A stretch of DNA of 63,065 nucleotides, counting the filler, from Folioceros fuciformis (taxonomy: Eukaryota): NCBI GenBank assembly GCA_049999805.1. It is 7 parts of 7 records of this genome, joined end to end, with 100 filler letters (N's around TTAATTAATTAA, not from the genome) between each part and the next. Parts side by side here need not be neighbours in the genome. Positions count along the whole stretch, not along the records: positions 1 to 26,274 come from JBNGIO010002064.1; 6 more parts are not named here. One strand, given 5' to 3'. Shown here in pieces: positions 1 to 50,641 of the stretch. The notes below the pieces were generated by a model. It was not told where the DNA came from. It worked only from the letters and a program-made list of their open reading frames with translations, and did no database searches. Both the position numbers and the translations under genes were made by a program. Positions within the stretch are counted from its first letter, which is position 1; each line of letters begins with the position of its first letter.

Positions 1-3000
1 AAAACCAACTAGACGAAAGGGCGATGAGGAACTTTCAAAACCAACTAGACGAAAGGGCGATGAGGAACTTTCAAAACCAACTACTTGCGGATGTAAGGCA
101 TATAGGATGGGAGCAAATCCAGGGATTGGGAGTGTCAGTAGACTTGATCATTGCCGGGTGGGAATGTCAAGGCATGTCATTGGCAAGAGCAGGAAGGGGA
201 TTGTTGGATCCAAGGTTAGCACTATTCTTTGAGTTGACAAGGATCATTAGGTTGGTTCAACAAGATCAGCAAGAGCCATGTGGGTACATTCTTGAGAACG
301 TTCTAGCAATGTTTGACAAGAGGCAAACTGTGAAGGCAATGTTTGACAAGAGGCAAACTGTGAAGGACAGCTTCAAACAAATAAGAGGAGTAGTGGGTAT
401 GGAAGTATATCTTGATGTTGTGCAGTTTGGGTCACATGTACGTCGACTAAGGTGCATATGGACAAACATGATGCCTAGAGAAGCATTGATGACATGCAGG
501 GATATCACAATGTTGAAACGGTGCAAGTGAAAGACATCAGGTTCGGAGACAGGCATCCTCAAGAAATCATGAAGTATGAAAGTATGCCGTACTTCGTTGT
601 GAATGAAGTGGGAAAACCAAGGGTAGCATGGCCAACCTTTGTAAGTGCAATTGGCTCTTATGCTTTTGGGTATGCTAACTCACCAGGCAGAGTGATGAGC
701 TCGGAAGGAGATGATATAGGAGAGCCAAATACACTCGAGTGAGAGTTAGCCATGGGATATGTCTTTGGAGCTACAGACATGGAAGGTGTGACTGAGAGAA
801 CAAGGTGAAGGTTATTGGGGCAGTCCATGGATGTCAACATGTTGACGTAGTTGTGTAGCACATGTGTAGCTTATCAATGGAGTAAGTACAAAAAGGGCAA
901 AACAATCGTTGTGGTACCGCAAGCTAGGGCAAAAAAAGCAAAGAAATCCAAGCTTGTCGAAGCACAAGTCAAGCGTGAAGATCAACCCAAGTTGATGGAG
1001 TGGGACGTGAACAAAGAGCTAACAGTTGAACAACAATAGCGAATGCAAGTTTTCTTGGATGCACACAAGGATAGCTTAGCATTTCCCATGAGTGATCTAG
1101 GTTGTTGTACCAAGTCCAAGTTCTCTATTAAATTGTAGAATGAGACACCATTAAGGATGTGGCATCATAAGCTTAGCAAGGTTGAGTGGGACATTGTGGA
1201 AGAATGGTGCCAAGAACTGCTCAAGGCAAGATTGATCAAGGTCTCAAATTCTGATTGGATGCCGGCTATTGTGTTACCATTAAAGAAGAATGAAGCTAGA
1301 AGAATGGGTGGACCAACGAATGTGTGAAGATTATCGTTACTTGAATGCTATCAGTAAATTGCATGGGTATCAAATGCTTACTCCTGATGAAATATTTGAT
1401 GACATTAGAAGTGCTTGCTACTTCTCCACATTGGATCTTAGGAAAGGCTTTAACCAAATTGACATCGTGGAGGAGGATCAATGCAAGACGGCATTTTGGG
1501 GAAGAGATTCATTATATGAATGGCTAAGGATGTCATTTAGACTAAAGAAATTTGTTGTGGTGTTTCAAGAGAATACTGATGGTACATTGGCAAATGTGCC
1601 TAAGGCAACGTGTTATGTGGATGACATCATTATCTTCACTAAGACTTTTGAAGAGCAAATTCAAGTGGTGGAAAAAGTCTTTGCTAGGTTGAAGGAATGG
1701 GGGCTTAAATGTCATCCTCGTAAGTGTACGTTTGCGTACAACAAGATGTTGTACTTGGGGCATGAGATAACTCCAGAGGGCATTTCACCTTACATGGCTA
1801 AAGTGGAGGCCATTATGAAATTGCCCAAGCCAATTGACATTTCCAAGTTACGAACATTTCTTGGACTTATTAGTTATTATGAAAGGTACATACCTAACAT
1901 GAGTGCAATTGTGAGGCTATTGACGCTATTGTTGAAGAATGGTCAGGAATGGTGTTGGGAGTAGGAACAAGAGTTGGCATTACTAGAGGTGAAGAACAAG
2001 CTATGCAACAGTTCAGTTTCACGAAGACTAGACTTTACCAGGGAATTTTTGTTGTATACTGATTAGAGCAAGCTTGGATTGGGTGCAATGCTAGCACAAG
2101 TTTTTGGGGATGGAGAAGAACACCCTATTGCTTATGCTAGTCACAGTACGAACGCTACTAGTAGAGGCAAACTATTGTTCTTATGAAGGAGAGTGTCTAG
2201 CACTTATGTGGGCAGTGATGCATTTCCGAGTTTATCTACATGGACGAATATTTGAAGTCATCACAAATCATCAACCATTGCATTGGTTGATGACAAACAA
2301 TAAGTTGACAAGGAAACTTGCTAGGTGGGCTATGATCTTGCAAGAGTTTGACTTCACTGTAACACATTGTATAGGGAAGACGTATTTGAATGCTGATGCG
2401 CTATCCAAGAACCCAATGGAAAGTAGCATGGATCTTAATGAGGTGCGACATGATTGGATCATGACATTGTAGGTCATCACTGTGAGTCGCAACTTGGCTG
2501 AGCTTGCAACGTATGAACTAGACGAGGAAGTCTTGGAAGATCTTGAAAAACCATAGGTTCCCATTGTGAGGGCCAATTGTGTTCGAGATGCATGGGCAAA
2601 TCAGCAGTTAATGGATTATGTTTAGACTGGCCAAATCGCTGAAGGGATTAGTCAACGGTGCAAGGATCAACTGCAGCACAGGGCAAAACGATACATGTGG
2701 GAAGATAGCAAGTTGTACATGTTGCAGTATAATGGTCAGCGTAAGGTGGTGCTAGCACCAATGGAGCGTGAGGCATTGATTATGCAAGTGCATGAGCAAC
2801 TGGGACGTTTTGGTGTCAAATGCACATTGAGCATGTTGACGCCATGATATTGTTGGGTAGGCATGCACAAGCAAGTGCAGGAGATTGTTGCCAGGTGCAA
2901 ATCATGCGATCGAATCAAGGCAAGATTTACAGCGGATGATATAGTGTTTCATTCTTTGCCTATAAGAGGATTATTCTACAAGTGGGGAGTTGACTTGTTG

Positions 3001-3225
3001 CTGAAATTGCCAAGGACCTCGTGAGGAAATCGTTACATGATGTTGATGATTGAGTACTTCTCCAAATGGATTGAAGTTGTTGTCTTTCATGAGAAGATGT
3101 CGTATAACACTGGCCAGGCATTTTGCAATGTATGTTGTCAAGGTTTGGTGCATGTGTTGAAGTTGTGACGGATCAGGGATCAGAGTTTAGAGAGGAATTT
3201 CAACAGCTTATGGACAAGGCGCTCA
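1..3225 (+). mobile_element. Decayed Ty3/Gypsy LTR retrotransposon pol, copy A: C5-DNA methyltransferase, RT, RNase H and integrase N-half (continues in the inverted segment 4039-4853)
   Basis: RT motifs RMCEDYRYLN, LDLRKGFNQI and YVDD (1290-1964). RNase H NYCSYEGECLA..ITNHQPL..ARWA..NADALS (2104-2472). Integrase Zn-binding HEQLG..C-x2-C (~2790-2910) and core WGVD..VVTDQGSEF (~2980-3190). Many stops and frameshifts; the 5' end runs off the window. Confidence 0.93.
24..850 (+). pseudogene. Retrotransposon-borne C5 cytosine methyltransferase domain (DNMT3-like), copy A, frameshifted
   Basis: Motif IV-like DLIIAGWECQG (141-173), motif VI YILENV (~285-302), motif VIII DVVQFGSHVRRLRCIWTN (~415-467), motif IX E*ELAMG (~737-757), motif X RLLGQSMD (~808-832). 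Motif I lies outside the window. Confidence 0.88.
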
Positions 3226-3750
3226 GATTGGATGGCCTTTTTCCATTTTGCAGCATCAAGGCTACTCAAGGCTTCTTCGTAAGATGAGGCTCTATGGGAT
3301 CAAGAGCAATAGCATGTACAGAGGGTGTCATAAAATCTTGAGACTGATAATAATCTGGTGCCCGTCTTTCTCTTGCCGGATAACGGCGCACCGGTTCAGG
3401 TACATCCTCATCATCAGGGTCAAGATCTAGATTTGGATCAGGACCATCATCGTCATTAGGAACAAGGGGTTCAGGATCAACAGCACATGAGGAGGTGGAT
3501 CCTGTATGTCAACAACAAAATCAGGAACTGCTAATTCATCTGCCTGCTCTACAACTTGTCCATCATTTTGCTGATTGTCTTCCCGCCCTGCAAGACCAAA
3601 CTCCTCATGTGGAAAGTTAGGAAAAACTGTGATGTCAGAAAGAGTAGACAAATCAAAAGCCTCTTGGGAGGTGGGAAGTGCTCCCACTGGCTGCCAAAAA
3701 CGAGTTTCATCAAAAGTCAGGTTGTGAGCTTGCCCGTAGCCCCATAAGTC
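3226..3750 (-). mobile_element. Ty1/Copia integrase-to-RT linker fragment (inverted)
   Basis: Minus strand reads LTFDET near 3715 and SYEEALSSLDAAKWKKAIQS ending at 3226, the typical Copia pre-RT motif. It joins EYDSL at 4854 once re-inverted. Confidence 0.8.
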
Positions 3751-4038
3751 TCATGAGCAAAAGGGATGAAAATATGTGTCGTGTTCTGCTGCTAAATATT
3801 GCACTCATGCATGGTTCATTAGTTAACAATACTCACACCATGCCACATTACACACAAATTCAACACTGCATGATGGTGCTGCAGCTCTATCCCCCCTACT
3901 AGTTAGTACTCTGCCAACACATATATGTTGTAGCACTACTACAACATACTAAGAATTCAAACATACATGTAACTCTTGAACAAAACATCAATCATCCATC
4001 AACTAGTATTACTTGTTAATGAAGATTAGGTTGCTGGC

Positions 4039-4853
4039 TCATGGCTTTGGCAACTTCGCACAGTTTGGGCAAAACCAATCTTCTTGCAATACTTCTTCCA
4101 AGGCTGGCTGTAGACAAAACAGGTGATACTCTTGATTACAATGGTTACACAAGAGCATGACATCTTCTTCATCAGAGTGACTACAAATGCGGCATTCCAA
4201 GTCCTTAGGTGGTATCCAAGTGCTAGGTTGTGGCTCTGGATCCAAATATGGCAAATGACATGGAGCTAGGTTCTTCAAATGATCTTTCTACCTTCGTCCA
4301 TCAGATCCCTCCAGCTCCACCACCCCAACGTCCTTGACAACAACCACCTGCAGAATTATGCGCCCAACACTACTATCAAGTGTATCCGAAGGTTGTTGAG
4401 CCAAGTATACATAATCACCAGGTTCAAATCGCCGCACTTTGAGCTTCCAACTTCCTCCTTTTGTATAAGCATAGCGTAGTCTGTCCCTATGTTGTGCAAT
4501 GGCCAAATTTTCCATTGCCATTGGCATTATATGCTGAAACAACATTTCCCGACTTTGCAGCTCTCTGATGCAGCCATCCACATCTTGCCATGATATTGGT
4601 CTTTCCATAGCAGCTTGCTGCACATTAGGCAACTGTGGATGTCTCCCAAACAATAAAAAATACAGAGAAAAGTCGGCAAGCGCGGCTTGATTGCTTGCCC
4701 GATAGCCCAACAACATGTATGCCACCACTTCATCCCAGCCTTTCGTGCTATTTTGCAAGCAATACTTACATAGAGCATGCTTGACAGTTTGCACTCCCCT
4801 TTCAGCCAAACCATCTGCTTGTGGATAATCCCTGCTTGTGCGACGATGATCAA
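4039..4853 (-). mobile_element. Gypsy integrase C-half plus C-terminal PHD finger (inverted piece of copy A)
   Basis: DHRRTSRDYPQADGLAERGVQT..LLFGRHP..FEPGDYVYL, then a C4HC3 PHD: CRICSHSDEEDVMLLCNHCNQEYHLFCLQPALEEVLQEDWFCPNC. Confidence 0.9.
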
Positions 4854-6384
4854 TGAATATGATTCATTGATAAAAAATGGAACATGGGAATTAGCTAAGT
4901 AACCTCCTGGACGCAAGCCTCTATCTTGCAAATGGCTTTTTAAATTGAAAGTTAAAGCAGATGGCACCTTTGATCATTATAAAGCTCGGCTTGTTGCCCG
5001 AGGCTTCTCTCAAGTGCCAGGTCTAGATTACCTGGAAACATATGCTCCTGTTATGAAGTTGGCCACTTTTCGCACTATATGTGCACTTGCAGCACACAAT
5101 GATTATGAGTTAGATATGTTTGATGTAAAGACAACTTTCTTACATGGAAAACTGGACACTGAAATTTACATGCAACAGCCACCTGGGTATGAGGTGAAAG
5201 GAAAAGAAGATTGTGTCTTACGCTTGATTTAAACCCTATATGGGTTGAAACAATCTGCCCTTGAGTGGAATGTTGTTCTTGATGAAGAACTGCGATCCCT
5301 AGGTTTTGTTAAATCTGCCTTAGATGGAAGCTTATATGTTTACAGATCTAAAGTTGTAGTATGTTACCTGGCTATATATGTAGATGATCTCATATTGGCC
5401 TGTAACAGTCCTACCTTCATCAAAGACATAAATAAGGTGTTATCAACCAAGTTTGAGATGACACACCTAGGTGCTCTACAAAGTTGCCTTGGCATATTGA
5501 TTCAGCGTGACAGGCAGAAAAGGACTATTTCTTTAACATAGCCACGATACGTATTAAATAGTGCTGAACAACTTGGTTTGAAGGATGCCAAACCATTAGC
5601 TACTCCTTTACCTTGTGGACTGAAAATAAGCAAATCAATGTGTCATGACACACAAACACAAAAAGATCAAATGAGAACAGTACCCTACAGATAGGCTGTT
5701 GGAAAACTTATCTATGCTGCAAATACTACAAGACCAGAAGTAGCTTATGCTACGAGTGTGCTTTCACAATATTTGGAAAATCTAGGTCAAACACACTAGA
5801 TAGGTGTTAAAAGAGTTTTCATATATCTAAAAGGCACTCATAACATTGGCATAAGGTATAGAAATATACCTGGAGTACCTTTATAGCTGGATGTCTTCAC
5901 AGACTTAGATTATGCTGGGGACATAGATACACGAAAGTGAGTTTCCGACTATGTAGTAATGATAGCAGGAGGACCAATCTGCTGGTCGAGTAAGAAACAA
6001 CCTACTATGGCCTTATCCAATACAGAGGTTGAGTATCGTGTGCTTAGAGCTGCTGCAACGGAAATAGCTTGGTGTAAATCGATGTTCAAGGAGCTTGGAT
6101 TACCACTTCCAACTTGCACCACAATTAAAACAGACAATTAAGGATCAATGAGTCTTCCTCACAATGCAGTATTTCACTCTAGAACCAAACATGTGGAAGT
6201 TGAATACCACTTTATACGTGACTTGATCAAATCTGGACAGATTGATCTAGAGTATGTGCCAACAGCTGAAAACCTAGTTGACATTTTAACTAAGTCCTTA
6301 GGAAGGGAACTTCACGAAAAGCACATGAAAGTTCTTGGCATGGGGAGCCATGAAGGTAGCCCCACTACCATATCTAAGACCTAG
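4854..6384 (+). mobile_element. Ty1/Copia RT-RNase H, decayed
   Basis: EYDSLIKNGTWEL, YKARLVARGFSQ, DVKTTFLHG, YVDDL, WSSKKQ..ALSNTEVEY, HSRTKHVEVEYHFIRD. Several in-frame stops. Confidence 0.95.
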
Positions 6385-7880
6385 CCAACCAAGCTAGTCA
6401 CAACGCCAATCATTGTTGTCGTCATTGCTTGATTTCCCTGGTGGAGATTGGAAAGATTTCCTGCTCTCAGAACTTGTTGAGTCAGCAAATTTTTCCCAAG
6501 AATCATAGTCCATAGACTCTGAAGAGAAAGTTTCATCTTCATTGCGAGGAGAAAATGTTTTCCTCCTCTCCTGATAAGAAATTCTCTCCTTTGTCTCGAG
6601 GATATTCTCCTCTTCAGATCTATCTTCAGATCCTGTTGATAGACTGTGGAAGCATGGTTCACAGACAATTGACATAGGTCAACAGGGGGTTAAGACCTTT
6701 CCAGGTCATACACAAAGGAAAAAATCAGACTATCTACACTGACTGTTTTAAGCACAAAAGAACAGACTCAAACTAGTGTGAAGACATACTATGGATACTG
6801 ATGATGTGATCTTTGTATTCCCGGCATAGCTGTAGCTCAACGTGTTTCATCACCAGTTCAGTAGATGTGCAACTGTACCAAAGAGGGCTTTCGGGCGTCT
6901 CCCAATTGCCAGGGGTTATGATTCTTGTTTCTGACATCACACCTGTGGGAATTGGGAACCTGGGCGGAACAGGAGGGCGTTCATTAGTATCGGCATACTC
7001 AAACTCACCACGATTGAAGCGGCGCCTTTCCACTGTTGCCTGAGAATGGATATCTTCACATGACCTGCCCCTCAAACCTCCCATGGTAGTAGTTGGTGCT
7101 GTGCGGGATCGAGGTTGAGGCGCGGTTGCTGTAGGTTGTTTAGTCCTGGTGCCTGAGGTCAAGCGGGTATGATGAGAAGACGTTGCCGCCACCACTGTCA
7201 CTGTCTCTGATGCTGCTTCCAGGCGTCTTGCTTCAAGCACAGCCCTGGCGGTGCCTCGGGGTCTCCCTCACGGCCACCCTGAGCTGCTTGCTCTTCTTGT
7301 ACTTTGTATCATTGTTTGTGCAGGCTGATGCGCTCTCACGCCTTCCTCAAAGACAGTTGCTTTAGCTGTTGCTAGTGCGAAGCGCCCTAGCTGATCTCTT
7401 GAGTAGATGCGCCGCTTTGCACGAGACGTGCTTTCCTCAAACCTTGAAAATGCCATGTTCTTTGAAGAATTGAGCTTGTGCCCTATGAGCCTAGCCGCTA
7501 TATGGCATGGGGCGTAAACAAGAGCTATTAAAACAACGAACCTGTACAGAGCTGGCTTCACACTATCCCGCTCCATTGGGAGCTTACACCATATAGAGTA
7601 CACACACACGCTCAAGCAAGAAGCCCAGCTGAACTCACAGTCTCCATAGGCTACTCGCGAAGGAGAAGACTGACCGACCCATAACAATCAGCAAGTGGGA
7701 GTGATGAGAATAGGTGCTGATTCATTAGGGTTCAGTAATATCAGCATTTATAGTATGTGTGTAAATAGATATTATTATTCTAAATATCCCTTCATTAGAA
7801 TTACTCCTTTAGTGATAGTGAAAGGTCATGTGTGTTCATGTTCATAATAACTTAAATTCGGTTAGCGTCTTTTGACATGC
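6385..7880 (+). mobile_element. Long 3' region of the Copia element with antisense ORF remnants; candidate PPT at ~7693-7701 followed by an AT-rich LTR-like stretch from 7702
   Basis: Minus-strand ORFs 7268-7687, 6773-7240 and 6394-6675. AAGTGGGAG|TGATGAG resembles a PPT/LTR boundary; the LTR end was not found. Confidence 0.4.
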
Positions 7881-7949
7881 GCTTTTATTGTAATATTCTT
7901 TGATTAATAATGTAATTGTTTAAAAAAGCAATTGGTCTACACCAATCCA

Positions 7950-10900
7950 ATCCAAGTACATGGCTTCGCCAATCACATGGAAGATTTCTTCTAGAGTTGG
8001 CATGAGATATCTTTCCATGGGTGTCACGCTGTTTAAAGCCCGGTAGTCTCCACACATACGCCTGTCCTTCCATTCCCTATTCTGATCCTTTTTTAACGAC
8101 AAGGCTATCGCCACCGCGTATTAAGACTTCAACTTTCTGATCAATCCAACAAATGCAAGCTCTTGGCATCGTTTGTCGACCAGGTCCCATTCTATTGGAC
8201 TTAGTCTGTGCCTTCTTCTGAACACTGATTCTTCGGTGCTAGTGTCTATACGAAATTTAATGCGATCATACTGCCCCAGCTCTTCCCAACTGAACGCAAA
8301 AGCATGTTTGTTTTGCTCCAACAGCATTCAGAACCCTTGCTTGTCTTCTTTGCTGAGCTCTTCGCATATCTGCCATTGATGTTCATTTCTTTCTTTGCTT
8401 CCCATGCACGGAACCTCTTCCCTTTCCTCATTTAGTGCCTTCTGCTGAGGATCCATTGGAAAGCTTGTTCCTGGCTCTAGCACTCGTAAGTGCCGTTTTC
8501 TTCTAGGGACACATGCAAACATCTGGGCTACCAGCCCTACACATATTAACCAATGTAGGCAAAACAAATCAAAGGCCTGCCCTACAAGCCTACTTCTGTA
8601 CGAGTTAGACACCCCTGGCGTGGTTGTGCCATTCAACCAGAACCCCATCGCACGTTCTCTTTCTATGATTACTGGTTCACCAACCTCCTCTCCTTTCTTC
8701 TTTAATACCATTCCATTGCCTTCATGATGAAAAATGTATGACTGAGATTTACTGACCAGTGTGGGCCATGCTCTTCTTGGCTTTCCTACAATGTTCAAGG
8801 GAAAGTTGGGCAGCCGTTCTGCCCTTCTTACTTGTTGAGACACCCCGGGTATTAGAGGAAGGAAGGGTCCCTTCCTTGCTCTAATATCTCATCCACTTGT
8901 TGCTGCGGGGGTTTGGTGCCTACCCTATGCTGCTTGAAGACCTCGACACTGGCCACGTTGGTCCAAAAACTTTGCACTTGGTGTGCATATGAGCCCACTT
9001 GAGCGGTATCAATAATGAATTCGCTCCCCAGCCATCGTCTAAGCTGTTCATAATCCTGCCTGATGGTCTCCCGCTTGTCGAAAGCACCACACATTTTCTA
9101 GCAAATACCAACAATTGGGATTCAACTCTTGCACCAACTGCAGCACTCGTATCACTTCCTCGGCTTGCCTTAGACCACTCCCCGTTCCCTTGCCTGCCCC
9201 AGAAAATGCCTTGCATTCCCAACCTGCTATCACCAGATGCACACGACAGCCCATGGACTCCAACTGTTGTCTCCCTAGCATCTCAATGTCTTCTGAGAGC
9301 CTGCTCTGACACCCGTTCATGGCCGATACAATGAACTGGGTGGGAAAGAATCGCTGCAAATCTTCAACGCGTGCCTTTGCGACTGCATGGGTTTTAGCCT
9401 ATCGTTCTACACAGGTGTATTTTTTTATCCTTATTCTGCATCGCAGCACTGCTTCCAACCCAATGCTGATCCTTGCACACAACTCAACTAGATGGATCCC
9501 TTGATCGGCTGGCTTCCATTGAATCACCTTCTTATCAATGCGAAGCTCCTCTCCCTTGAGCCTTTTTTCCATTTGGTAGGCAACTCTCTGGACACATGCC
9601 CGAGGCCTGCCAAGGCTTTGGCTTCTCATGTCGATTGCGTTCTCTGACCAATGCCTGCTCCAGTTCTTGTGTGGCCCGTATGCACATGCCAGTTCTACTC
9701 TCGTGTGACTCTTGTGTTTCTTCACCCATCATCTCTTGAGTTTCTGTCCACATCTCATCTCAATCCAGACTCGATGCCACATAACTACCCAGCGCTGGCA
9801 CATTCCCTGCCTTTGCGCCGCGCCTTCTCATTTCTAAAGGAATTCGGGCTGTCCAAGTGAAATCCCCATTCTGCCACCCTGGTCGATAGAATGCCACCAA
9901 GTGTAATGGGTCCACTCCCGTTGCGAGACCGTGTGTTGTATCAGCCCTAAGCAAGACATCGTAGTTCTCTGCCTTCGACACAAGACAGTGCACTCGTCTT
10001 ATACATGCATCCGGTGTGCCTATTTTGAATTCTATCTGAATTGGCTCTCATGTTACCCCTCATACCCTGGTGCTTGCGGATGTCGCGATTCTTACATGGC
10101 TGGGCCTGATTCTCTCCCCATACAGCTTCAGTTCTTGTTGCACCCGGGATCCCAGCATCATTAGGTTTGCGCCAATGTCTATTAGTACCCGTTCAGGGGC
10201 AAATCCATTGAGCGTGACATGTCTGTCCATATTTTTCACCATTGCAATTCCACCTCTTCCTCTGGATTCAAGTTTCAAATGATCTCCTCACAGGCTTACC
10301 ATCCCAATCACCGTTCCCAATTCATCAACTTCCTTTTTTATCCACGCTTGCATAGCACGCTTGAATGAACTAGTCTGGATCCCAAGATCTCGCAGACTGA
10401 CCATAGGGGCGTTCATGGCCTTTTCAAACAAAATATCAGCATTCGGTTGCTTGCATTGAGCTGGCACAACTGCCTCATCATCTTTCATTTGCCTGAAGGA
10501 ACTTGGCATTCTAGATTGCTGCTTGTCCTCAAACTGCCGACAAAAAACCCTCTTTCCAAAATTCGTGATTTGTGTTTGTGGCTCACTCGTTCTTCCTACT
10601 GTGAGCGCACTCACATTTGCCTCGTCGTCTGAGTTGTCTTTATTCCACCCTGGCGTGCACGGTGCAGTGACACACTCATTGCCAATTGTTCCTGTAAGTG
10701 CTGTACTTCACTCAAAAGAGCTATGGGTGTGTAGTTAGCCCTATGCTCTGCTTTCCCACTCTGCTCGTTCACTATCTTAGGCTTGAGTTCGGGGTGCACT
10801 TGCTAGCATGCGGCCTCAATATGTCTTGGTTTGCTGTAAGGCCGTTACACCTCCTTCTCCTTTACCCCTCCTGCCCGATAGTCACATGCACTAACTCGGT

Positions 10901-11830
10901 GTGCTCCTCTGCACTTCGAGCATTTGCTGGCATTTTGCTCACCACAGCACTGTTGACTGATCTCTCCTTTGAGGGTGAAAATCTTCTCAGCCCAGCTAAC
11001 TGTGTCTGCTCGCGATATGTGTCCCTACGGCCAACCTTCGAGGTGCTAGTTGTTCCGGAATGCCCTCTGCCTACATGATGCTCCTCCCAGTAAGCATTGG
11101 TTACTGCATCACCTTTCATCACTCGCTCAACCATCTCATAAGCCTGCTCCAGCTCATAATTTGCTCCATGTAACATGTGTAGGAAGTTGGTGATCACTCT
11201 CCGCAGTCAACCAGGAAGTGCTATGATGTATATTTGTGCTGCCTCATGCATTCTTTTTGCCTTGTTGTCCTTCACTAGCTGTCGGAGCCTTAGATACATT
11301 GACCGAAGAGGTTCTTTTGGCTTGATAACAAACTTGGACAGCTCTTGGATTTTTTCAATGGACGAGACCGGAAACATCTCAGCAAAAGAGTGAAACATCT
11401 CATCCACCAAGCACGTTACCATCTCTTAGGGTCTTGCAACTCTTGCTTCATCATCATCTTCTTTGAGTGACTTGCCCATTCTTCTGGTCCTGACCAGCAC
11501 TCGTGCATTCTCCATGATCTTCTCCTTGGAAGCTGGATAACAGGTGAGTGCTTCTCCAGCTAGAAACGTGCTCATCTTTTGAGCGCCATCTTCGGCATGA
11601 ATTCCGACTTGCACTTCAGTACCATTTCATCTAGCGACCACTTGAACTTTTCCTCGAAGTATGCCAGTGACATGCTGTCATGCCTACCAGTGAGCACATC
11701 ATTCTTGCTCAAGACTGGCTCTTGGTCCATTCTTCCTACCACCCGGCTAGAATCCCCAATCCAACGTCCTTATTAGACTGTGACTCTAGTGAAATCACCC
11801 ACTGTTCTTGTGAATGGATGGATACGAACT
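7950..11830 (-). mobile_element. Decayed Ty3/Gypsy LTR retrotransposon, copy B: gag, protease, C5-DNA methyltransferase and RT N-terminus (3'-truncated)
   Basis: Gag-like ORFs 11614-10862. Degenerate Zn knuckle SKPRHIEAAC*QVHPELKP (~10830-10780). Protease VLIDIGANLMMLG (10278-10060) and YDVLL. DNMT motifs follow, then pre-RT FRRRHRLSPIEW and RT RMCGDYRALN..YLMPTLEEIF (8327-7950). Confidence 0.9.
8560..9510 (-). pseudogene. Retrotransposon-borne C5 cytosine methyltransferase domain (DNMT3-like), copy B, complete motif set but frameshifted
   Basis: Motif I IHLVELCARISIGLEAV..IKKYTCVE, IV HLVIAGWECKAFSGAG, VI YLLENV, VIII IDTAQVGSYAHQVQSFWTN, IX ERERAMGF, X RSRLVGQAFD, all in canonical order. 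Confidence 0.9.
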
Positions 11831-13564
11831 TGCCTGTGTCTCGATCTGCTGCACCGGAGTAGCTTCGTTTGTTCACCCAAACGCAACACCACCATCTTCA
11901 GTCCCAGCCCCTGCGAGACACTATGTATGGCATCTTATCAAAATCTACGTTAGCACCTTCCTGAGTCCAGTGGCCAACCACAATATCAAATCGATTGCCT
12001 CTATCCACAATCGCTGCCACAATTCCTCAGCTGTGATGTTTAGTAACTCGGCTAGTTCGCTGATGGGTCCTCCGACAAACACTTGTGAGAAGTTCATGCT
12101 CACTTGAAGCATGCTCAGATTCCTAATTGTCTTTGTCGCTTTCCGTGCACCGCTGACACTCCTCTTCATCGTCATTCACACCTACAGAGGGACTGCTTGA
12201 TGTGAAAATGCTCTGTGCTAATTGCCAAATATCTCCTTCAAAGCTTTGACAATTCCCGGATCATTGCCTTCCAAAGGGACCTCGCCTGGCTGTGCTTACT
12301 CACGAACATCGAGCAGTCCACCCATTAGGGTAGGGCGGCTGCTCTTTATCTTTACTAGCACCGACTTAACATATTATGGTGATTATCCGTGAATCGTGCC
12401 TCTATTTGATCTCCCAGGATCCTCGTCCTACTTCTATATTATCTATTCCGGTCAGGCTTATAAGAACATACCTATGTGTGGTTCTGAACACTACCACCCA
12501 CTTGCCCCATCATGACAAACCCCTTGTGTTGGAGTGACCTGCCTTTATCGCATAGATAATTCCGGATTGCCAAAACTAATGGCTAAACATGGGCTACATT
12601 TTGGGTCTCATGGTAAACTCCGACCTTGAACACCTTCTCGACTTGGCACATTGGGTTTGGCTTCATAAGAACCTAATCTTAAGTGAGGAGGGGTTTGGCC
12701 TCATGTAAACCCTCTCTTGAGTGAGGAGTAAAAGGATTAGGAAAACTTGTTTGGAAGTCGACTTCTACTAGCTGGAACGTTTTTTTTAATGGTGAGGAAT
12801 AAATAGTAAGCAACAGCAGCATTGACTATGACTATCAAGATGGTCTTCCTTGGAGTGGCAAAATCATGGGCAATTTCTAATGGCCCTTGGCAACGTGTAC
12901 GATGGAATACTTCTACAAGCGTATAGGCCAAAAACGTATTTTTAGGGCATGAGTTGCACTGGAATGCAGGGCACAAGTTGCTCGAAGTTGTCCTGTGCTG
13001 TCCAAATTCGTGAAGGTTACGTACGTAGTATTTAGTCCTGTTATTAAGAGTGGGGAAGCTCCGCGCGGGGTTCGAGGTTTCGTTATAGGCACTCCGCACT
13101 CCTATGAAGGACATTTGGATAAAACCTTCTTCTGTGTGCGCCGGATGTGGGTATCTTGCTGTCAGCTACGACTTGATATGTTTTTTGGGAAGCCAGGTCC
13201 GATTTTGGAAAGTTAGGCAACTAGAGCAAAATGCAAGCACTCTGACCAGTTCCCAGTACGAATAGAAAAATTCGGGACACCACAAATCCAGAACAACAAC
13301 CCTCAAGGTTCATGTCCCTCTCGACCTTAGGTGAGAGGCTGTGAACCATTGAGAGAAGGACTTCACGACAATGTTGTGCTTGAAGATCAAGTTGTGCTTG
13401 TCCTTGGTCTTCTGGGACATCACTGCCCCACAAATCCATGTATACATCCGTCTTGTTCATGTGATGGACTAAATCAGAAAAACTTTTCTCACATCGTGGA
13501 CATCCACAGCAATGTTGTTGATGGCGTTAAGAAACTTCTTGCATAGAAACACCTCCATCCAGGA

Positions 13565-26274: not shown

Positions 26275-26374
26275 NNNNNNNNNNNNNNNNNNNNNNNNNN
26301 NNNNNNNNNNNNNNNNNNTTAATTAATTAANNNNNNNNNNNNNNNNNNNNNNNNNNNNNNNNNNNNNNNNNNNN

Positions 26375-27862: not shown

Positions 27863-29283
27863 CTCCCTCTTAAGTTGAACGTAACCTAACCAGTCGTGGG
27901 GGTTATCTCCCATGGAGCGCGACGCTCCTCTTTGATTCGCTCCCTCTAAAGGCTAATGAGAGCCTGTACATGCCGTCTTGACGTACGGCACTGAAGAGGC
28001 ACAAGTCAGGATTTGTAGTCCTAAAAAGGTAGCATGACCCCTATGAAGCAAGCATCTTAAGATCGCCTTGCTTTAGCAACTAAGTCATGGAGACCAGGTT
28101 CTTGCCCATCTCTGGGACTAGGAGCATAGGCTCCAAGGTAAGCACCGAACCGTCCTCAAGGAGAAATTTGCAAGTGCCTTGTCCCATGATTGGCAAGCTG
28201 GATCTACTCTGTTCGTCACCGAGTAACACCCTTTCCTTGAGAGGATGAGTATCCAACTTGGTGAATAGAGTACAATCGTTGCATATGTGGGCGGTGGCTC
28301 CATTGTCGAGATACCACCCCACATCCTGATGCAACTGGGTTGACGCAAGCCGTAAGTATCTTTACGGTTCTTGTCTCCACTGTGCTGGCGTTCCCCTTAA
28401 TTGCAATACTGGCTACTTGTCACAAGTCAGCCTTTTGCGGCTCTCCGGCCTCTTTCTTGCGGCACTCTCGTGCCCAATGGCCGGCAGCTCCACACCAATT
28501 GCAGTTTCTAGCTCGGCGAGGAGGGACAGAGGTTGAGTCAGCTTTAGGGGTGAAGTTCGCCTCGCCGTTCGAATTCCTCCCAGACGTGAAGTGGGTGGAA
28601 AGCGCCCTGTCTGCCTCGGGCTTGGACCCTCCTACAGAACATAAGCGGCTCTGCTCCTGCTGATACAGAGCACCGATGATGTCCTCCACTGTTAGGGTGG
28701 GGGCGGTACCTGCCTTACCCTGAGTTGATACCAACATCATGCTGGTAACAAAATTCTGGTAAGACGATGGTAAGCTCATTAGCAGCTGTGCAGCGGCATC
28801 GGTCTCCAACATGGTTGAGCAAAGGGAGGCGAGCTGCCCTCGCAACTGTCTGAACTTCAAAGTGTGAGCAGAGATTGTATCTGCCTCCTTCATCCTTAAG
28901 GAGTTGAATTCTTGCCTTATACTGTACAAGGTTAGAACATTGGTAACATTGTAGGTGTTAGACAATTGGTCCCAGATGGTAGATGCATCTGAGAGAAATT
29001 CAACACTAGGCACAAGACTTGAATCTAGGCTGCTGATTAGGAGTGCTACAGCTATCCCATTCAAATAGTTCCATCTCTCAAAGACGGCGACTGGTGGGGG
29101 TGGAGTGGCAGAAGGGTCGGGCTTTGGAAGGGTGCCGTCGACGATCTTCCAAATGCCCCGGCCAATAATGATCGACGTCATCCGAACGCGCCACACAAGG
29201 TAGTGTTGGCCGTTGAATCGGTCTTTCTCTCTAATGTGGTCGGTGAAGACGGGAGTGGAGCTGGTGGAGAAAGTACTAGCCAT
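27863..29283 (-). mobile_element. Internally deleted Ty1/Copia: intact-looking gag plus protease, no INT/RT/RH
   Basis: Gag FNGQHYLVWR..IWDQL..LLMSLPSSYQNF with Zn knuckle CNWCGAAGHWAREC (28420-29283). Protease WYLDNGATAHIC..KNLVS (28080-28334). The PPT lies about 210 bp later. Confidence 0.88.
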
Positions 29284-30750
29284 GGCAGTCGGAGCGTTAA
29301 TTGAAAGCGAGTTGATCCCAGAGAGTCAACGTGTTGACCGAGGTGTTTGCTTCTGTCAGCTCCTCTGCCAGGTCGAAAAAGGGGTCCTTGGGAATGCTCA
29401 GCAACAGGTGAAGGAGGCTCGATCTTCAGAGGTGGATTATGATCCTCATGATGATCTAAGGTGCTCGGAAGATGTGTTCACCCTGTGGCTTGAGCTAAAT
29501 CACAAGCAGGGAAGGGATCAGTAATTTGAGAGCAAAAAGAAAGCCGATTGGAGGCATGTAAGTGTGAACCGGCACCAATTAAAACCGGTTCCGAGCCAAT
29601 ACCCAAAAAGACTGGGTTCACATTGGTAGGGGGTGCCAAATTAGGCCCTCCCCCCTGCGAAAAGGCAACATAAGTTGCCTTTTCGCGACGCCGCCGTTTC
29701 GCGGGCGGCCGCACCTCCTCGGGCACGCACGCGGCTGCGGTGAGGTGGGCAGCCTCCACAGCGAGCTCCCGCTCAACCGCGAGCGCCCGGAGGAGCTGGT
29801 CCTCCTTGATGCCTCCAGATGTTGGCGCCCTGAGGGTTGGATGCCTTGGGGCGCTTCTGTCCTTAGAATTGGAGCCTGAAATCACGGAATTTGGGGCCAG
29901 ATCTGCCGAATTGCAGGAAGCAAGGCGCTCAAGATTGGGCCCAAATCCTTGGCCAATTCTCCTGTGATTGTGATATCCTGAGGTGCTCCATCGACAGGAA
30001 GAGGCAGAGGGCTTCGTGAAGCTCCCAGGGACAGGTCATCCTCAGAGAATCCGTGCTGAAAGCAGTCTTCTCGAGAAATCTGCGGAGATGGGCAAGTATA
30101 GGCACGGGAAACACGGGGAGGCAGTTGTCCAGCCCTCCCTCTGAGGGGCAAATGCAGGAACTCCTCTCCCAGGTCTTGAGCTGCAGATTGCAGGGGTTAG
30201 GTAGCCTCCTGGAATTCCTGGGCCATCCTCCGTGAATCCGTGAAGGGGACAATCCACACGGGGGCTGGAGGATAGAGAGCAAGTGCAATGTCATCGGCGC
30301 CGTCTTGTCAGGGAATTCGCACACTGGCCCTTGCCCGCCGGCGCTTGAGCAATATGAGGTGCCTGAGATACTTGCGAATTTTAGTGTAGGAGGATTGTCG
30401 GAGGGTGAGGTCGCGGCGCCGATCCATCGCGATGGTGGGCTGAGGCGCAGGAACTGGAGGGGGACGAGGGAGGTATGCCCCACCTGTCCCCCGTCTTCCC
30501 TTTTAAATCCATATATGGGTCTGACCCTTTATATCTTAAATCTAAAAACCTTAAGATACAAGCCCAAAGGATAGTGGGGATTGGTGTCGCAGTTTGCATT
30601 AGAACTCCGTGGTCAAGCGCCCTGGGGCTTGATCAGGTCTCGGATAGAGGNNNNNNNNNNNNNNNNNNNNNNNNNNNNNNNNNNNNNNNNNNNNTTAATT
30701 AATTAANNNNNNNNNNNNNNNNNNNNNNNNNNNNNNNNNNNNNNNNNNNN

Positions 30751-34680: not shown

Positions 34681-36509
34681 AGGTTTGGACGTGTTGTGCC
34701 AGTCCCTGTGCTGTCTGTCACACAAAGAAACAGTCACGGGTTCTTCGGTTGTTCCGATCCCCGACGCTGCTGGTCTGCGGCTCGGGGATTGCGGCTCGGG
34801 GCCCGGACGCTCGGCGCTTCATGGCGCCCGTGGCCGTAGCCGGGGCCGTTGCCGTTGCCCGAAGCTGCAGCCTAGGGGGGGCCTGGCACCTTGCGTTTGT
34901 CCCGGCCCCCCTTGCTTCCTCTTCACATCAGTGGCTTGTCTTGCATGTGCGGCCAGCTCTCGGGCAAAGAGAGATGCTACCGTTGTGAGACGGGACGTGA
35001 CGACAACGCGCCTCGCTGCCTGCTGCGTACAGAAAGAAAAACATGCATGATGTGTGCGTGCTCACGGGAGACAGAGAGAAAGAGCGCCCAGCAGCGGGTG
35101 CCGTAGGACCAGCCGCCCAGCTCCCGATCGGGCACACCACGAAAGCCCCATCTCATGCACTCGTCGATGCCGTGGTGGGCACGCCCTGGCTCGCCTCCGC
35201 TTCCATGCTCTTGTAATAGTAGTAGCAGCAGCAGCAGCTCCTCCATCGCTCCTGCACTGTGCGGGACAGGCGGTGCTGTTTGAATCCGATTCGTTTTCAC
35301 CCAATTGCACGGCCTGGCCGGTGCGCAGTGCCAGTCGGACTGCGAGGCCTGGTAGCCCCCCCCTGTCGGTTGCTGCCACCGCCCAGCTCGCGCATTTGTT
35401 GTAGGTGGGCGGTGGTGGAGCAGCAACTGCGCCGGCCGGGCCAGGGCCCCAGGGCCGTGCCGGCGGGATGCCTTGCCCTTGTTGATGCAGGGGAATTTGG
35501 TGGGAGATTAGGGCGGAATTTAGTGGGCGATTGGGCTGGAATTTGGCAATGGTGGCAAGGGTAGGCGGGGTGATGGCCGCCCTCATTGCGGGGGAATGCA
35601 GTTGAGTGGTTGGGGACNNNNNNNNNNNNNNNNNNNNNNNNNNNNNNNNNNNNNNNNNNNNTTAATTAATTAANNNNNNNNNNNNNNNNNNNNNNNNNNN
35701 NNNNNNNNNNNNNNNNNCGCTTTTTTTCGCAAACGACCTAAACATAGCGCAAGGGCACAAGCCACACCGTGGATCAAATCAACTATTGGGCCCTTCGGTG
35801 AAAGTGAAGGTCGTACACAATATATCATGCCCTCTACGATTCCTAATTGGCTGCTTCGTTCTGGCGCAAGGAGGGCCTCACCCCTCACCCTCGACCACTA
35901 CCAGGTAGTAGCATGGCAGCGACCACACCACGGGCCCGGCAAAAGTACCACCTCACCTGATGAGAAACAGTTGGTATAGCAGACAGAGTTCTCATAAAAA
36001 ACCACCCATGACGGAGGAATCCAAAGGTTCTATGGAACGAGCGAAAAGAACGATCAACAAGGGCCTCAAACGCTAATCAACAAACTGCAAACCTCACAGC
36101 GGCATGGTGTACGGATCTCTCCCTGTCGCCTGGCAGGCACATAGTGGCAACAGAGCTTCGTCAGCTAATTTCACCAGAAATCTCCTTCAGGTTCTCGATC
36201 CTGTTATTTTAAAGCCATCTGAAGATGAACGGACATTTGAACGCATCTGCTCAACTGTTTCAAAGGCACTCTTCAGGTTTCCTGTGCTAGTTGGAGCTAT
36301 GACCAGAAGGGGAGCTGATTATCCTCCGTTTGAGAACAATTACAAACGAGCACACCCATCACAAGGATGACAGAATCTTGGAGCCAAATGATACCGCCCA
36401 TATTTTTTTCGGTGGACACTCACATCTACTGCAGGACATTACGACACCATACACCCATATGTTTTGTGCTGTACAAGTCCGCAGTCCCAGCTTCTGACCT
36501 GGGAATATT

Positions 36510-39442: not shown

Positions 39443-40583
39443 GGATTGAGCATATACCCTACTGCGTTCTTCCAGATGTTACTCAACACTGCCGATGGAA
39501 AATGTGCGAACAACTCCTGAACCACTACGAATGGACACTCCAGAAGACGGTTGTGTCCTACATCCGTGCAAGCTTATTATCCCTAACTGCCTCATCTGCA
39601 ACGATGGAACAAGGCAGGAGACGATGGAGGGGCAATGAGCCAAGCTGTTGTCTTCTGAATCTTCTCTCTCGTTTAGGTCACCTTTGCAGCGTCGAAAGGC
39701 ATGTAACCGTCAAGTCTTTCTATTCTGACTATGTACACAGTCTCCAGTGAAATGTCTCACCCAGCTCTGACTGATAAGTTCACCAAGAGGATGGAAGATG
39801 GCTATCCTTTGCTCAGGGGGCCCTTCCGTTCGAATGCCGTTTTCTCCCCATGAGAGACGAATTTTGCTGCTCTGACTGTCTCTAAGATGGGCAATAGCAA
39901 AAATTACTCGCTCGAACTGATGTTCAGATGCTAAACCAGAAGATCTAGACCAACAAACATATTCATTCGCAAATAATCTTGCCCTGAACTTGGCAGTCCT
40001 GCGTGTCGTGCACGCACTTGTAGTTTCGATCGTCCTGAGGTTAGGAGGACTCGGGTTGGCAGGTGACCCTGTGGCAGAGCATCGACGGTGGGAGGCGAAA
40101 ACGGGATGTCGTCGAGCAGGCCAATCCTGTCCGTGGCAAGGGATCCCAGGTCTACAAAGATGATAAATTGTGCAAACTGTGAAGACACAAGATGCAACCA
40201 ATAGTTCGGTAACTGAGTCACATTATTATGGGTTGCGCGGCTTGTGAGCATATAACATGAAACCATCGTCAGTACAGCAGCTGGGATCGCTTGAAGGAGC
40301 CCGTCCGGTGCGACTTGCCGGGTAAGCTCGTCACAGGATGGATGTACCCATCGAGGACCAATCTCCAGGGAAAACGTGTTGTGCCATTTCTGGGACAACA
40401 GACCTGACGGGTGAGGCCCCCCGCCCATAAGTTCGCCTAGATCCGTCCATGTCTTCGATGCAGAACTCTCCCAGAAACCGGTAGCGGTTGAAGCGATGAC
40501 TATTTGGAGCGTGGCAATTATATCAGTTTAGAGCATCACGATTCGTTGAGGCGGCTGTCTTTCTTGACCCAAACAAATGGTTG

Positions 40584-50200: not shown

Positions 50201-50641
50201 CCCGGAAACGGCTCTTCCTGTCTCCACTTTACGATTCACATTCCGCGGAAACCTGCGCTCCTCTGTCCGTACCCCTGACCCAGCATCCGCAACCTTGATG
50301 TTCTGACCCAGCTTTTCCACAGCCTGCCCAGGCGACTCTGAAGGCTCTCTCCTCCAAACAGAATTCCTATACCTGCTACTAGCCTGAGACCAGCTCTTGG
50401 AAGACTCCGCCGGCGGATCAGACGTTTCCGACTGGGAAACAATGCTCCTGGCCTGCCAGCGACTTAAGGATATAGGCTGACGAGAGAAGAGCCAAGGGCA
50501 AGAGGGCCACCGAGGCAATGTGTGCAGACCCAGCTGCAGGTCCAGCTTCAATCCATTGCGCGGAACTGCGAAGCAACGTTCAGTGAAGCAATTGCAGCAG
50601 AGAAACATTGTCCTGATTACGACACAAGAGCTTACCTTCAT
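47229..50641 (-). CDS. PRORP: Proteinaceous RNase P (PPR plus NYN nuclease), multi-exon, long N-terminal extension
   Basis: LDMCSKFGD, YNVLLYLCS, PKLRSYGPAL, GGGWHGLGWLG, CQCC Zn site, DAIVDAANVG, TPTGSNDDWYWLYAA, VTNDEMRDH-like, MPPPYSIVIQ, QWLCVTR. The start is uncertain. Confidence 0.93.

Follow-up and report, generated by a model that had tools for sequence, protein, structure and literature searches.

The window analysed here, a 63,065-nucleotide stretch of Folioceros fuciformis DNA with filler included, encodes a PHD finger on its minus strand, behind the C-terminal region of a retrotransposon integrase. Pieces of two Ty3/Gypsy copies and of a Ty1/Copia neighbour surround it, as follows.

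30-856, plus strand: C5-DNA-methyltransferase-like domain (family HMM, tblastn), with one frameshift and stops; 5' end cut by the window start
962-2153, plus strand: start of the second pol part and reverse transcriptase (RT 1305-2153; tblastn with L067 ORF2 residues 11-414 and P0002 residues 1-319)
2161-2454, plus strand: RNase H (tblastn with P0026 residues 680-776, the RT_RNaseH region by Pfam)
2557-3225, plus strand: integrase zinc-binding domain and first part of the catalytic core (tblastn with P0002 residues 321-659 and P0026 residues 1260-1458)
3226-4853, no strand: inverted segment; when it is turned back, the integrase halves and the two Copia pieces each join in frame
3226-3719, minus strand: Ty1/Copia polyprotein fragment, the stretch just before RT (frame translations); it adjoins the Gypsy copy but does not belong to it
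3720-4038, minus strand: 3' tail of the Gypsy copy, non-coding and with no protein match, reaching to the Copia junction
4039-4041, minus strand: closing stop of the PHD frame, 12 residues beyond the last Cys
4042-4287, minus strand: open frame holding the PHD (ORF table and translation)
4060-4194, minus strand: PHD finger, C4HC3 (Pfam, PDB phmmer, AlphaFold2, Foldseek)
4288-4290, minus strand: in-frame TAG, behind the integrase C-terminal region and ahead of the PHD linker (ORF table, DNA)
4291-4853, minus strand: second part of the integrase core and integrase C-terminal region, INT-C (translation, tblastn)
4854-6300 (end approximate), plus strand: Copia RT and RNase H, continuing the 3226-3719 fragment (Pfam RVT_2, E 3.6e-57, nt 4876-5610)
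7944-10197, minus strand: second, strongly diverged and truncated copy of the same element type (tblastn with L067 ORF1/ORF2 and 10 relatives; family HMM)
10197-9862, minus strand: protease of that copy (tblastn)
9524-8523, minus strand: methyltransferase-like domain of that copy (tblastn; family HMM, E 1.2e-50)
8420-7944, minus strand: start of RT of that copy, then truncated (tblastn)

The initial annotation had claimed a complete C4HC3 finger, and the claim holds. The Pfam model PF00628 matches at 4060-4194 on the minus strand (residues 32-76 of the frame) with an E-value of 8.8e-12 and 45.3 bits against a cut-off of 24, covering model positions 1-47 of 47. Translation of the minus strand over 4039-4863 gives the ligands in C4HC3 order with canonical spacing (C-x2-C-x11-C-x2-C-x4-H-x2-C-x14-C-x2-C). 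Over all six reading frames, the 63-kb window holds this strict pattern once and none of 100 base shuffles holds it, by which we rejected a chance motif. All eight zinc ligands are kept, together with the Trp that stands two residues ahead of the seventh ligand; ligands and Trp are likewise invariant in 56 of 56 relatives. The window finger deviates at four near-invariant positions (in the relatives D in 50/56, G in 51/56, P in 55/56 and G in 46/56), and two further Glu residues stand at family Gly positions.

The placement of the finger also proved correct. Read on the minus strand, the integrase C-terminal region is followed by one stop, the TAG at 4288-4290, and then by an 82-residue open frame with the PHD, in a single frame throughout. 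Where the window copy has the TAG, the 56 aligned relatives have a sense residue, hydrophobic in most cases. INT-C is 53-55% identical by tblastn to P0001 (residues 220-486) and P0002 (residues 659-925). When Pfam was run on the 3.3-kaa read-through frames of 3001-13000, the PHD was the sole match; long frames rich in X make Pfam less sensitive, and we therefore used tblastn with relatives and a family HMM instead.

To which element does the finger belong? If 'copy A' of the initial annotation was the minus-strand methyltransferase copy at 10197-7944, the assignment was wrong: the PHD lies in the inverted 3' end of the plus-strand copy at 1-3225. The tblastn alignment of relatives and the loose-end joins both reject membership in the minus-strand copy. 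A 1.6-kb segment (3226-4853) is precisely inverted, and the integrase-C/PHD piece therefore reads on the minus strand. The integrase of the plus-strand copy stops abruptly at 3225, which is the breakpoint. Residue 659 of P0002 is the last aligned on the plus strand, at 3224, and the first aligned on the minus strand, at 4857. The translated frame opens with three residues of the neighbouring Copia fragment; the integrase sequence proper begins at 4853 rather than 4863. The Copia frame behaves in the same way, ending at 3225/3226 on the minus strand and resuming at 4854-4858 on the plus strand, and in a contig holding another Copia copy 3226-3719 is continuous with 4854 onward. Moreover, the loose end after 3225 is the reverse complement of 4846-4853, and the one before 4854 agrees with 3226-3253, read in reverse complement, in 24 of 28 letters. 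None of the 24 pieces listed bridges the right join of the inversion (253 more exist). The inversion may be biological or an assembly artefact, and the supporting runs may be the assembly's own data. A very high-depth repeat (depth 759) lies in the Gypsy 3' tail at 3792-3882, with loose ends at 3719 and 3801.

Once the inversion is undone, the plus-strand copy fits the Ty3/Gypsy Pol order of protease, RT, RNase H and integrase, with the protease supplied by the second copy and by L067, an intact relative. The window copy is a dead fossil with many stops and no function left: there are two stops in the RT alignment to P0002 and at least seven across the RT-integrase alignments, the TAG before the PHD being extra. 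Self-comparison of the window revealed neither an LTR pair for the element nor another copy of it at the DNA level; the plus-strand copy begins beyond the window edge. No LTRs were found in the 9.3-kb contig of L067 either. Within the window the minus-strand copy lacks both an integrase and a PHD, and it shares no DNA-level similarity with the plus-strand copy at E 1e-10.

Across the family the finger is constant. By precomputed Pfam matches, 57 of 61 homologous polyproteins have PF00628 in the frame of the integrase, and 56 of the 61 carry the strict ligand pattern. The five misses are P0020, P0024, P0058 and P0060, which break off within the finger or ahead of it, and P0005, whose tail is out of frame. 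A query with integrase only, the PHD left out, returned 1548 representatives at E<=1e-3. Among the best 150 of these, 124 had at least 85 residues behind the match; the PHD pattern follows the integrase match by 30-50 residues in 110 of the 124, and 14 are without the strict pattern. A motif about 25 residues upstream of the finger, A-P-C-H-L-P, is conserved alongside it. Sub-threshold leads from the protein atlas comprise integrase+PHD clusters with scores of 0.83-0.89, for which Mollusca and Chlorophyta are the commonest recorded taxa.

The PHD is under purifying selection. Between loci L065 and L067, the sole pair with unsaturated dS and enough differences (13 of 15 stop-free pairs are saturated or nearly so), dN/dS is 0.03 for integrase and about 0.04 for the PHD (7 non-synonymous and 19 synonymous differences). 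In a second pair, L003 and L028, the PHD ratio is 0.28 from 9 differences, and one ligand is lost in L003. The C-terminal PHD is a constant, selected hallmark of the lineage, and steadier than the methyltransferase.

The methyltransferase domain is present in both window copies according to the family HMM, which matches the plus-strand copy frames (1-3300) with E-values of 7e-31 and 6e-28 over HMM positions 51-322. PF00145 is matched at E 1.8e-13 in L067; taken by itself, the window ORF falls short of the cut-off (E 0.0036). Against the PDB, the domain of P0026 gave weak single-sequence phmmer matches to a plant DRM-type chain (0.015), HaeIII/HhaI (0.02-0.1) and DNMT3B/3C (0.2-0.3). The window sub-lineage runs from gag through protease, methyltransferase, RT, RNase H and integrase to the PHD. 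In L067 an in-frame TAG divides this order into two ORFs, gag-PR-methyltransferase and RT-RH-INT-PHD, the latter stopping 13 residues beyond the finger. As in the window copies, the methyltransferase is upstream of RT in three proteins, and it lies between RNase H and integrase in 38 of the 65 proteins holding RNase H and the integrase zinc domain.

A chromatin reader and a DNA-methylation writer in one polyprotein had been proposed, and the two do co-occur: methyltransferase and PHD share one ORF in P0007, P0018, P0026, P0042 and P0054, among others. Because they share single ORFs, with the PHD in frame in intact relatives, the finger is neither missing from DNMT-bearing copies nor out of frame with integrase. 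However, it is not tied to the writer, since the long-N-terminus members P0021, P0028 and P0167 keep the PHD without a methyltransferase domain. The methyltransferase is a separate module, gained at two places or moved between them, and missing in some members.

Which histone state might the finger read? By sequence and by predicted fold, the window PHD resembles readers of the unmodified H3 tail. A phmmer search of the PDB gave a best match of 1.9e-15, and the top sequence matches, among the 60 listed, are KMT2C, WSTF, KDM5 PHD1, ATXR5, BAZ2A/B, UHRF1/2, CHD4, DPF and PHF21A; the H3K4me3 reader TAF3 reaches only 1e-3. The AlphaFold2 model has a mean pLDDT of 81 (87-94 in the finger), and the top Foldseek matches of this predicted fold are BAZ2A/B, ATXR5, ORC1b and UHRF1, with BHC80 lower. 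PDB entry titles describe BAZ2A, ORC1b and UHRF1 in complex with unmodified H3, and ATXR5 with histone H3. The unmodified-H3 readers BAZ2A/B, ATXR5, ORC1b, UHRF1, BHC80/PHF21A and KDM5 PHD1 match the window PHD with sequence E-values of 1e-15 to 1e-7 and, for most, a Foldseek probability of 1.00 with an rmsd of 1.3-2 Å over 47-52 columns. An acidic loop and an M/L-L-L-C-D strand are common to these readers and the transposon PHD. The readers are cellular regulators, whereas the transposon PHD is an integrase appendage with a putative ligand. Their likeness leaves specificity unfixed: several of the nearest PHDs read other features, and the Foldseek neighbours also include DPF (H3K14ac) and a tandem-PHD complex with H3K4me1.

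Binding of an unmodified H3 tail had previously been argued from acidic residues (including a DEED) before the first Cys pair. The DEED actually lies between the first and second Cys pairs. That loop is acidic family-wide (34-70% per position), but the Glu before Cys1, on which stress had been laid, is unconserved and acidic in 4% of relatives. The nearest solved PHDs do read the unmodified H3 tail. Because of this resemblance, tethering of integration to H3K4-unmethylated chromatin is plausible.

Known elements offer several comparisons. Gypsy-DNMT3 (KnitGypsy-Dnmt3) was described in 2018 as a C5-methyltransferase inside a Ty3/Gypsy polyprotein in the green lineage, and the legend to Fig. 4 of that source gives it a DIRS-like terminal repeat arrangement (de Mendoza et al., PMC5890265). 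The window family is likewise a Ty3/Gypsy Pol with a C5-methyltransferase and matches the published Gypsy-DNMT3 type, the likeness being to its description and not to a published consensus. In contrast to KnitGypsy-Dnmt3, the window copy is dead, rearranged and set in a genome with land-plant-type genes. A partial Klebsormidium nitens protein, P0003 (GAQ93509.1), has a PHD and 46% identity to the window integrase-C/PHD; the fragment holds no methyltransferase. The main text of PMC5890265 has no occurrence of PHD, although its Fig. 4c or supplements may show one, and full-text searches, figures and supplements aside, found no literature text describing a PHD on the Gypsy-DNMT3 integrase.

The PHD sits where chromoviruses hold their chromodomain, as had been supposed. 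Chromoviruses are described as Ty3/Gypsy elements with a chromodomain at the integrase C-terminus (10.1101/2021.11.30.470311; 10.64898/2026.05.21.726589). They likewise carry a histone reader there, presumed to be a chromatin tether; in the window lineage the reader is a PHD, and its likely ligand, judged from sequence and the model, would be the unmodified H3 N-terminus and not H3K9 methylation. Pfam finds no chromodomain (PF00385) in the 61 relatives or in the window frames.

Reader-bearing transposons have been reported elsewhere. Chlamydomonas Gypsy-7a_cRei, in the passages devoted to it, is a Gypsy Gag-Pol with a PHD, like the window family, and the PHD is proposed to help avoid harmful insertions (bioRxiv 10.1101/2022.06.16.496473). 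By its legend, that PHD lies between RNase H and integrase, an arrangement that among the window relatives occurs only in P0061; unlike the window family, Gypsy-7a_cRei is given no methyltransferase in those passages. The same preprint refers to other PHD-bearing Chlamydomonas transposons, citing Perez-Alegre 2005 and Craig 2021. EpiLTRs, as presented in bioRxiv 10.64898/2026.05.21.726589, are LTR retrotransposons that likewise join a chromatin reader and DNA methylation in one element. They pair a chromodomain with two methyltransferases, one for adenine and one for cytosine, the latter grouping next to DNMT4, whereas the window family has a PHD and a single C5-methyltransferase; the preprint treats Gypsy-DNMT3 as a separate acquisition. 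The concept is already known, as these sources describe it, from Gypsy-DNMT3 (PMC5890265), PHDs in Gypsy polyproteins and reader-transposon fusions (10.1101/2022.06.16.496473; 10.1101/2021.11.30.470311).

We propose that the window feature is the Pol C-terminal end of a dead Ty3/Gypsy element, from a lineage whose integrase ends in a PHD that serves as an H3K4me0 tether; this is probably correct. In live members the PHD would remain joined to mature integrase and would dock the integration complex where nucleosomes present an H3 N-terminal tail free of modification at K4/R2. Such docking would steer new copies away from active promoters, and the finger would play the role of the chromodomain in chromoviruses, with another histone state. 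We infer histone binding, target choice and any coupling to 5mC deposition in the lineage. A broader proposal is tentative, and we hold it to be doubtful: a widespread Gypsy lineage (streptophytes and many metagenome eukaryotes) would use the PHD tether in place of a chromodomain to read H3K4me0, the state in which DNMT3 is licensed for de novo DNA methylation, would have captured the methyltransferase at least twice or moved it, and would carry a 'read H3K4me0, write 5mC' module that settles in and reinforces silent chromatin.

The finger could instead serve the element's methyltransferase, placing or activating it by ADD-like reading of unmodified H3K4 while integration goes untargeted. The ADD of DNMT3 reads the unmodified H3 tail state, as do the nearest PHDs. 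Because the methyltransferase directly precedes integrase in the commoner order RH-DNMT-INT-PHD (the 38 of 65 proteins above), a processed DNMT-INT-PHD protein is conceivable. We nevertheless consider this alternative unlikely. In the window sub-lineage the methyltransferase is upstream of RT, and in L067 it is encoded in an ORF of its own, set apart from the PHD by RT, RNase H and integrase. Moreover, the three members without a methyltransferase retain the PHD, the PHD stands 30-50 residues behind the integrase C-terminal block, and no DNMT3 ADD chain appears among the 60 PDB matches listed.

Nor do we give much credence to a non-histone target, such as a host protein whose N-terminus resembles that of H3, or to a structural part in the intasome, either of which would make the finger uninformative on chromatin state. 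The UHRF1 PHD, a fold neighbour, has also been solved with the non-histone PAF15, and the conserved A-P-C-H-L-P upstream hints at a larger unit; however, the closest solved relatives in sequence and fold are overwhelmingly H3-tail binders and the family retains the acidic loop that separates Cys pairs one and two, which leaves this reading quite improbable. It is very improbable that the PHD frame is a host exon or domesticated gene beside transposon debris. Liverwort and moss annotations do list relatives as genes (Mp_7g09570 'PHD-type domain'; a Sphagnum hypothetical protein), but these are methyltransferase, integrase-C and PHD pieces of the element. The window PHD is in frame with integrase, the integrase-C/PHD matches transposon polyproteins over its full length (query cover 97-99%), and the window frame is interrupted and decayed. 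We rejected the host exon on the ground that the relatives are transposon polyproteins and the annotated genes are pieces of the element.

Chromoviruses target integration through a chromodomain; should the PHD indeed tether integration to nucleosomes free of H3K4 methylation, the lineage would have solved the same problem a second time and independently. Taken together with the cytosine methyltransferase that it encodes, the lineage would then be a compact natural model of a mobile element that both reads and writes host chromatin. The methyltransferase itself has two alternative positions in Pol. Bryophyte annotations such as 'PHD-type domain protein' are pieces of this PHD-bearing Gypsy transposon. 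Intact candidates for experimental work exist, in the locus L067 and in the single-ORF RT-RH-DNMT-INT-PHD proteins.

A complete PHD finger lies on the minus strand of the window, in an 82-residue open frame behind the C-terminal region of an integrase. PF00628 matches this frame over the full model (E 8.8e-12; 45.3 bits, where the cut-off is 24). Across all six frames of the window the strict zinc-ligand pattern turns up a single time, and 100 shuffles never produce it. The finger is thus real, and it sits where the initial annotation had put it, one stop downstream of the integrase. The elements concerned are a Gypsy element on the plus strand from the window start (the + copy), a second element on the opposite strand (the minus copy) and an interleaved Ty1/Copia element:

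30-856 (+), methyltransferase-like domain of the + copy (family HMM, E 7e-31 / 6e-28)
1305-2153 (+), reverse transcriptase (RT) of the + copy (tblastn of relatives)
2161-2454 (+), RNase H of the + copy (tblastn of relatives)
to 3224/3225 (+), first part of the integrase of the + copy (tblastn of relatives)
4857 down to 4057 (-), integrase-C/PHD piece (tblastn of relatives)
4863-4039 (-), integrase C-terminal region, stop and 82-residue open frame (translation)
4288-4290 (-), internal stop TAG before the PHD frame (DNA read)
4060-4194 (-), complete C4HC3 PHD finger, frame residues 32-76 (Pfam PF00628)
4039-4041 (-), terminal stop of the PHD frame (ORF table)
from about 4854 (+), Copia RT (Pfam RVT_2, E 3.6e-57)
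10197-7944 (-), second element, truncated and strongly diverged (tblastn)
9524-8523 (-), methyltransferase-like domain of the minus copy (family HMM, E 1.2e-50)

To which copy does the finger belong? In tblastn, residue 659 of the homologous polyprotein P0002 closes one integrase block and opens the other. The same two breakpoints interrupt a Ty1/Copia polyprotein, whose pre-RT stretch lies on the minus strand and reaches 3226. Flipping 3226-4853 restores both reading frames exactly, and the integrase join matches the family consensus again. The segment 3226-4853 is a base-precise 1.6-kb inversion in the assembled sequence, and because the flip rejoins both the integrase and the Copia frames, the integrase-C/PHD piece belongs to the + copy. 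The same rejoining rules out the finger as the end of the minus copy, with which the + copy shares no DNA similarity at E 1e-10 in a self-comparison of the window. If the annotation's "copy A" meant the minus-strand methyltransferase copy, its assignment of the PHD does not hold, since P0002 residue 659 joins the piece to the + copy.

Contigs from public runs bear on the two joins. In one, the eight letters that follow the part matching up to 3225 are the reverse complement of 4846-4853. Another matches from 4854 onward; of the 28 letters ahead of that point, 24 agree with the reverse complement of 3226-3253, and this contig is a different Copia copy whose order is collinear. The inverted left join, with 29 letters to the left of it, appears in contigs at 3196-3463 from two runs of one sample, runs that may have supplied the assembly itself. 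None of the contig pieces listed bridges the right join. As one sample holds both the inverted left join and the 8-letter un-inverted continuation, the two forms, or a second near-identical copy, may coexist. Contig depth over 3792-3882, in the Gypsy 3' tail, is 10-50x that of neighbouring bins (759 against 9-86 in X1) and marks a very abundant short repeat.

The finger is a constant feature of the element's relatives. We searched with the 274-residue integrase-C/PHD stretch (stop as X) among longer proteins and obtained 61 matches, the majority being RT - RNase H - integrase - PHD polyproteins at 97-99% query cover. Named sources are the liverwort Calypogeia fissa (55% identity), Klebsormidium nitens, Marchantia polymorpha and Sphagnum magellanicum; the remainder come from metagenomes and other assemblies. 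Precomputed Pfam assignments place PF00628 in 57 of the 61 and a chromodomain in none. The strict ligand pattern is present in 56; four of the other five end inside or before the finger, and the tail of P0005, which misses the pattern, reads like an out-of-frame finger. Because this query itself held the PHD, we ran a second search of 1.84 billion cluster representatives with only the 191-residue integrase part as query, which gave 1548 matches at E<=1e-3. Among the best 150 of these, 124 extend at least 85 residues beyond the match, and in 110 of the 124 the strict pattern starts 30-50 residues downstream (14 are without it), so the PHD is a constant appendage of this integrase lineage. It is a hallmark of the lineage, and a steadier one than the methyltransferase. 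An A-P-C-H-L-P motif about 25 residues before the finger (4240-4257, minus strand) is also nearly invariant family-wide.

A scan of metagenome contigs gave 80 loci of close relatives, 77 with a match. In 46 of the 77 the alignment runs from core to PHD without a frameshift; only six of those are stop-free, and the other 40 hold 1-11 in-frame stops. This suggests decay by point mutation, for example deamination of methylated cytosines, rather than by indels. The window copy has the same look, with at least seven stops in the RT-to-integrase alignments and one in the integrase-C/PHD block. Among the six stop-free copies the sole pair with usable divergence, L065 and the intact-looking L067, has a dN/dS of 0.03 in the integrase part and 0.04 in the PHD (7 non-synonymous and 19 synonymous differences). 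L003/L028 gives 0.24 and 0.28 from few differences, and the other 13 pairs are saturated or nearly so. These values, with ligands invariant among relatives at 35-55% overall identity, show purifying selection on the PHD in live lineages.

Which kind of PHD is it? Against all PDB chains, phmmer returned 81 matches at E<=0.01, the best being KMT2C (1.9e-15), WSTF, KMT2D, Lid/KDM5 PHD1, ATXR5, BAZ2A/B, UHRF1/2, CHD4, DPF2/3, PHF21A and AIRE. The H3K4me3 reader TAF3 reaches only 1e-3, and the 60 of the 81 matches listed include no DNMT3 ADD chain. An AlphaFold2 model of the 82-residue frame (37-row alignment) has a mean pLDDT of 81, with 87-94 across the finger. Near the top of its Foldseek matches are BAZ2B, ATXR5 with H3, ORC1b BAH-PHD with unmodified H3, BAZ2A with an unmodified H3K4 peptide and UHRF1 with unmodified H3; BHC80, CHD4/5 PHD2 and KDM5B PHD1 follow lower down. 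In H3K4me3 readers the residue two places before the His ligand is a cage Trp; in the family this position is Gly in 51/56. These similarities support a putative reader of the unmodified H3 N-terminus. The acidic residues at the first Cys pair, previously offered in favour of such binding, are partly a family trait. The loop between Cys pairs 1 and 2 is acidic in 34-70% of relatives per position, and the Asp three residues before Cys1 is D/E in 61%; the Glu directly before Cys1 has an acidic counterpart in only 4%. At four near-invariant positions the window departs from its relatives, with N for D (50/56), E for G (51/56), L for P (55/56) and E for G (46/56), so its acidity is partly decay.

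The methyltransferase is less constant. In several single-ORF relatives Pfam finds PF00145 between RNase H and integrase, the whole reading RT - RNase H - methyltransferase - integrase - PHD. A family HMM made from 19 domains of this kind detects one in 26 of the 61 first-search matches. RNase H and the integrase zinc domain occur together in 65 of 199 proteins, 38 of them with the methyltransferase between the two; it lies upstream of RT in P0007, P0124 and P0160, as in both window copies, and the HMM finds none in P0021, P0028 and P0167, which have long N-termini. L067 has a first ORF of gag - protease - methyltransferase (PF00145, E 1.8e-13) and, past an in-frame TAG, a second of RT - RNase H - integrase - PHD that ends 13 residues beyond the finger. 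Single-ORF relatives and the L067 plan thus bear out, for the family, the proposal of chromatin reader and methylation writer in one polyprotein; the modules are nevertheless separable, and the PHD is the steadier. The TAG (L067:5083-5085) separates the two L067 ORFs, and P0007, P0124 and P0160 are continuous across this point; it may mark programmed read-through or be a lone mutation. Of 144 aligned methyltransferase domains, 56 have W-P-C-Q as catalytic motif IV and 24 have W-E-C-Q; both window copies have W-E-C-(Q/K). The Cys of this motif is kept in almost all domains and motif VI, E-N-(V/T/A), is retained. Pro-to-Glu next to the catalytic Cys is unusual among C5-methyltransferases.

On the best-supported reading, the PHD would remain on the mature integrase and tether the intasome to nucleosomes without H3K4/R2 methylation. 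Chromoviruses follow the same tethering logic; the proposed element would differ in reader and in mark. The main rival, that the PHD guides the element's own methyltransferase as ADD guides DNMT3, is conceivable where the order is RNase H - methyltransferase - integrase - PHD. However, it fits poorly with the window order, in which the methyltransferase is upstream of RT; moreover, L067 has the two domains in separate ORFs, and members without a methyltransferase keep the PHD.

A Gypsy family with a C5-methyltransferase, Gypsy-DNMT3, has been known from K. nitens since 2018 (PMC5890265); the main text of that paper makes no mention of a PHD. A 2026 preprint (10.64898/2026.05.21.726589) refers to 'streptophytes (Gypsy-DNMT3)' and sets them apart from its own elements, which have a chromodomain and two methyltransferases. 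Chlamydomonas Gypsy polyproteins carry PHD fingers, proposed to help them avoid harmful insertions (10.1101/2022.06.16.496473), in one survey PHD and Chromo were the commonest readers in fusions with transposon domains (10.1101/2021.11.30.470311), and the Gypsy-integrase-like Ginger1 transposases also bear a PHD (PMC2836005). The window element is decayed and rearranged and probably belongs to the published family, and the idea of a reader-tethered integrase is already established. The initial interpretation is thus borne out in part. We found no description of an integrase-terminal PHD of Gypsy-DNMT3 in the full texts searched. What the analysis adds is the PHD as a selected lineage hallmark, its probable unmodified-H3-reader type, as suggested by similarity, and a methyltransferase at two alternative positions, or absent.

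The window also holds a further Copia element and three host genes, which taken together point to a land-plant-like host that has flagellate cells:

28420-29325 (-), Copia-type gag with zinc knuckle (Retrotran_gag_2, E 5.7e-27)
38075-39478 (-), Cluap1/IFT38, a cilium protein
40500-43022 (+), PPR protein with E motif
48758-50761 (-), PRORP-type protein-only RNase P

Direct repeats of about 1.4 kb (55230-56715 and 59471-60909; 93-94% identity) lie 4.2 kb apart in the window, with filler between. They sit in different joined parts and are probably the LTRs of a further element, with a weak integrase match between them at 57023-57592. Each part join (26275-26374, 30651-30750, 35618-35717, 54942-55041, 56716-56815 and 59371-59470) is a pair of 44-N runs with 12 bases between, and several of these six pairs fall at repeat edges.
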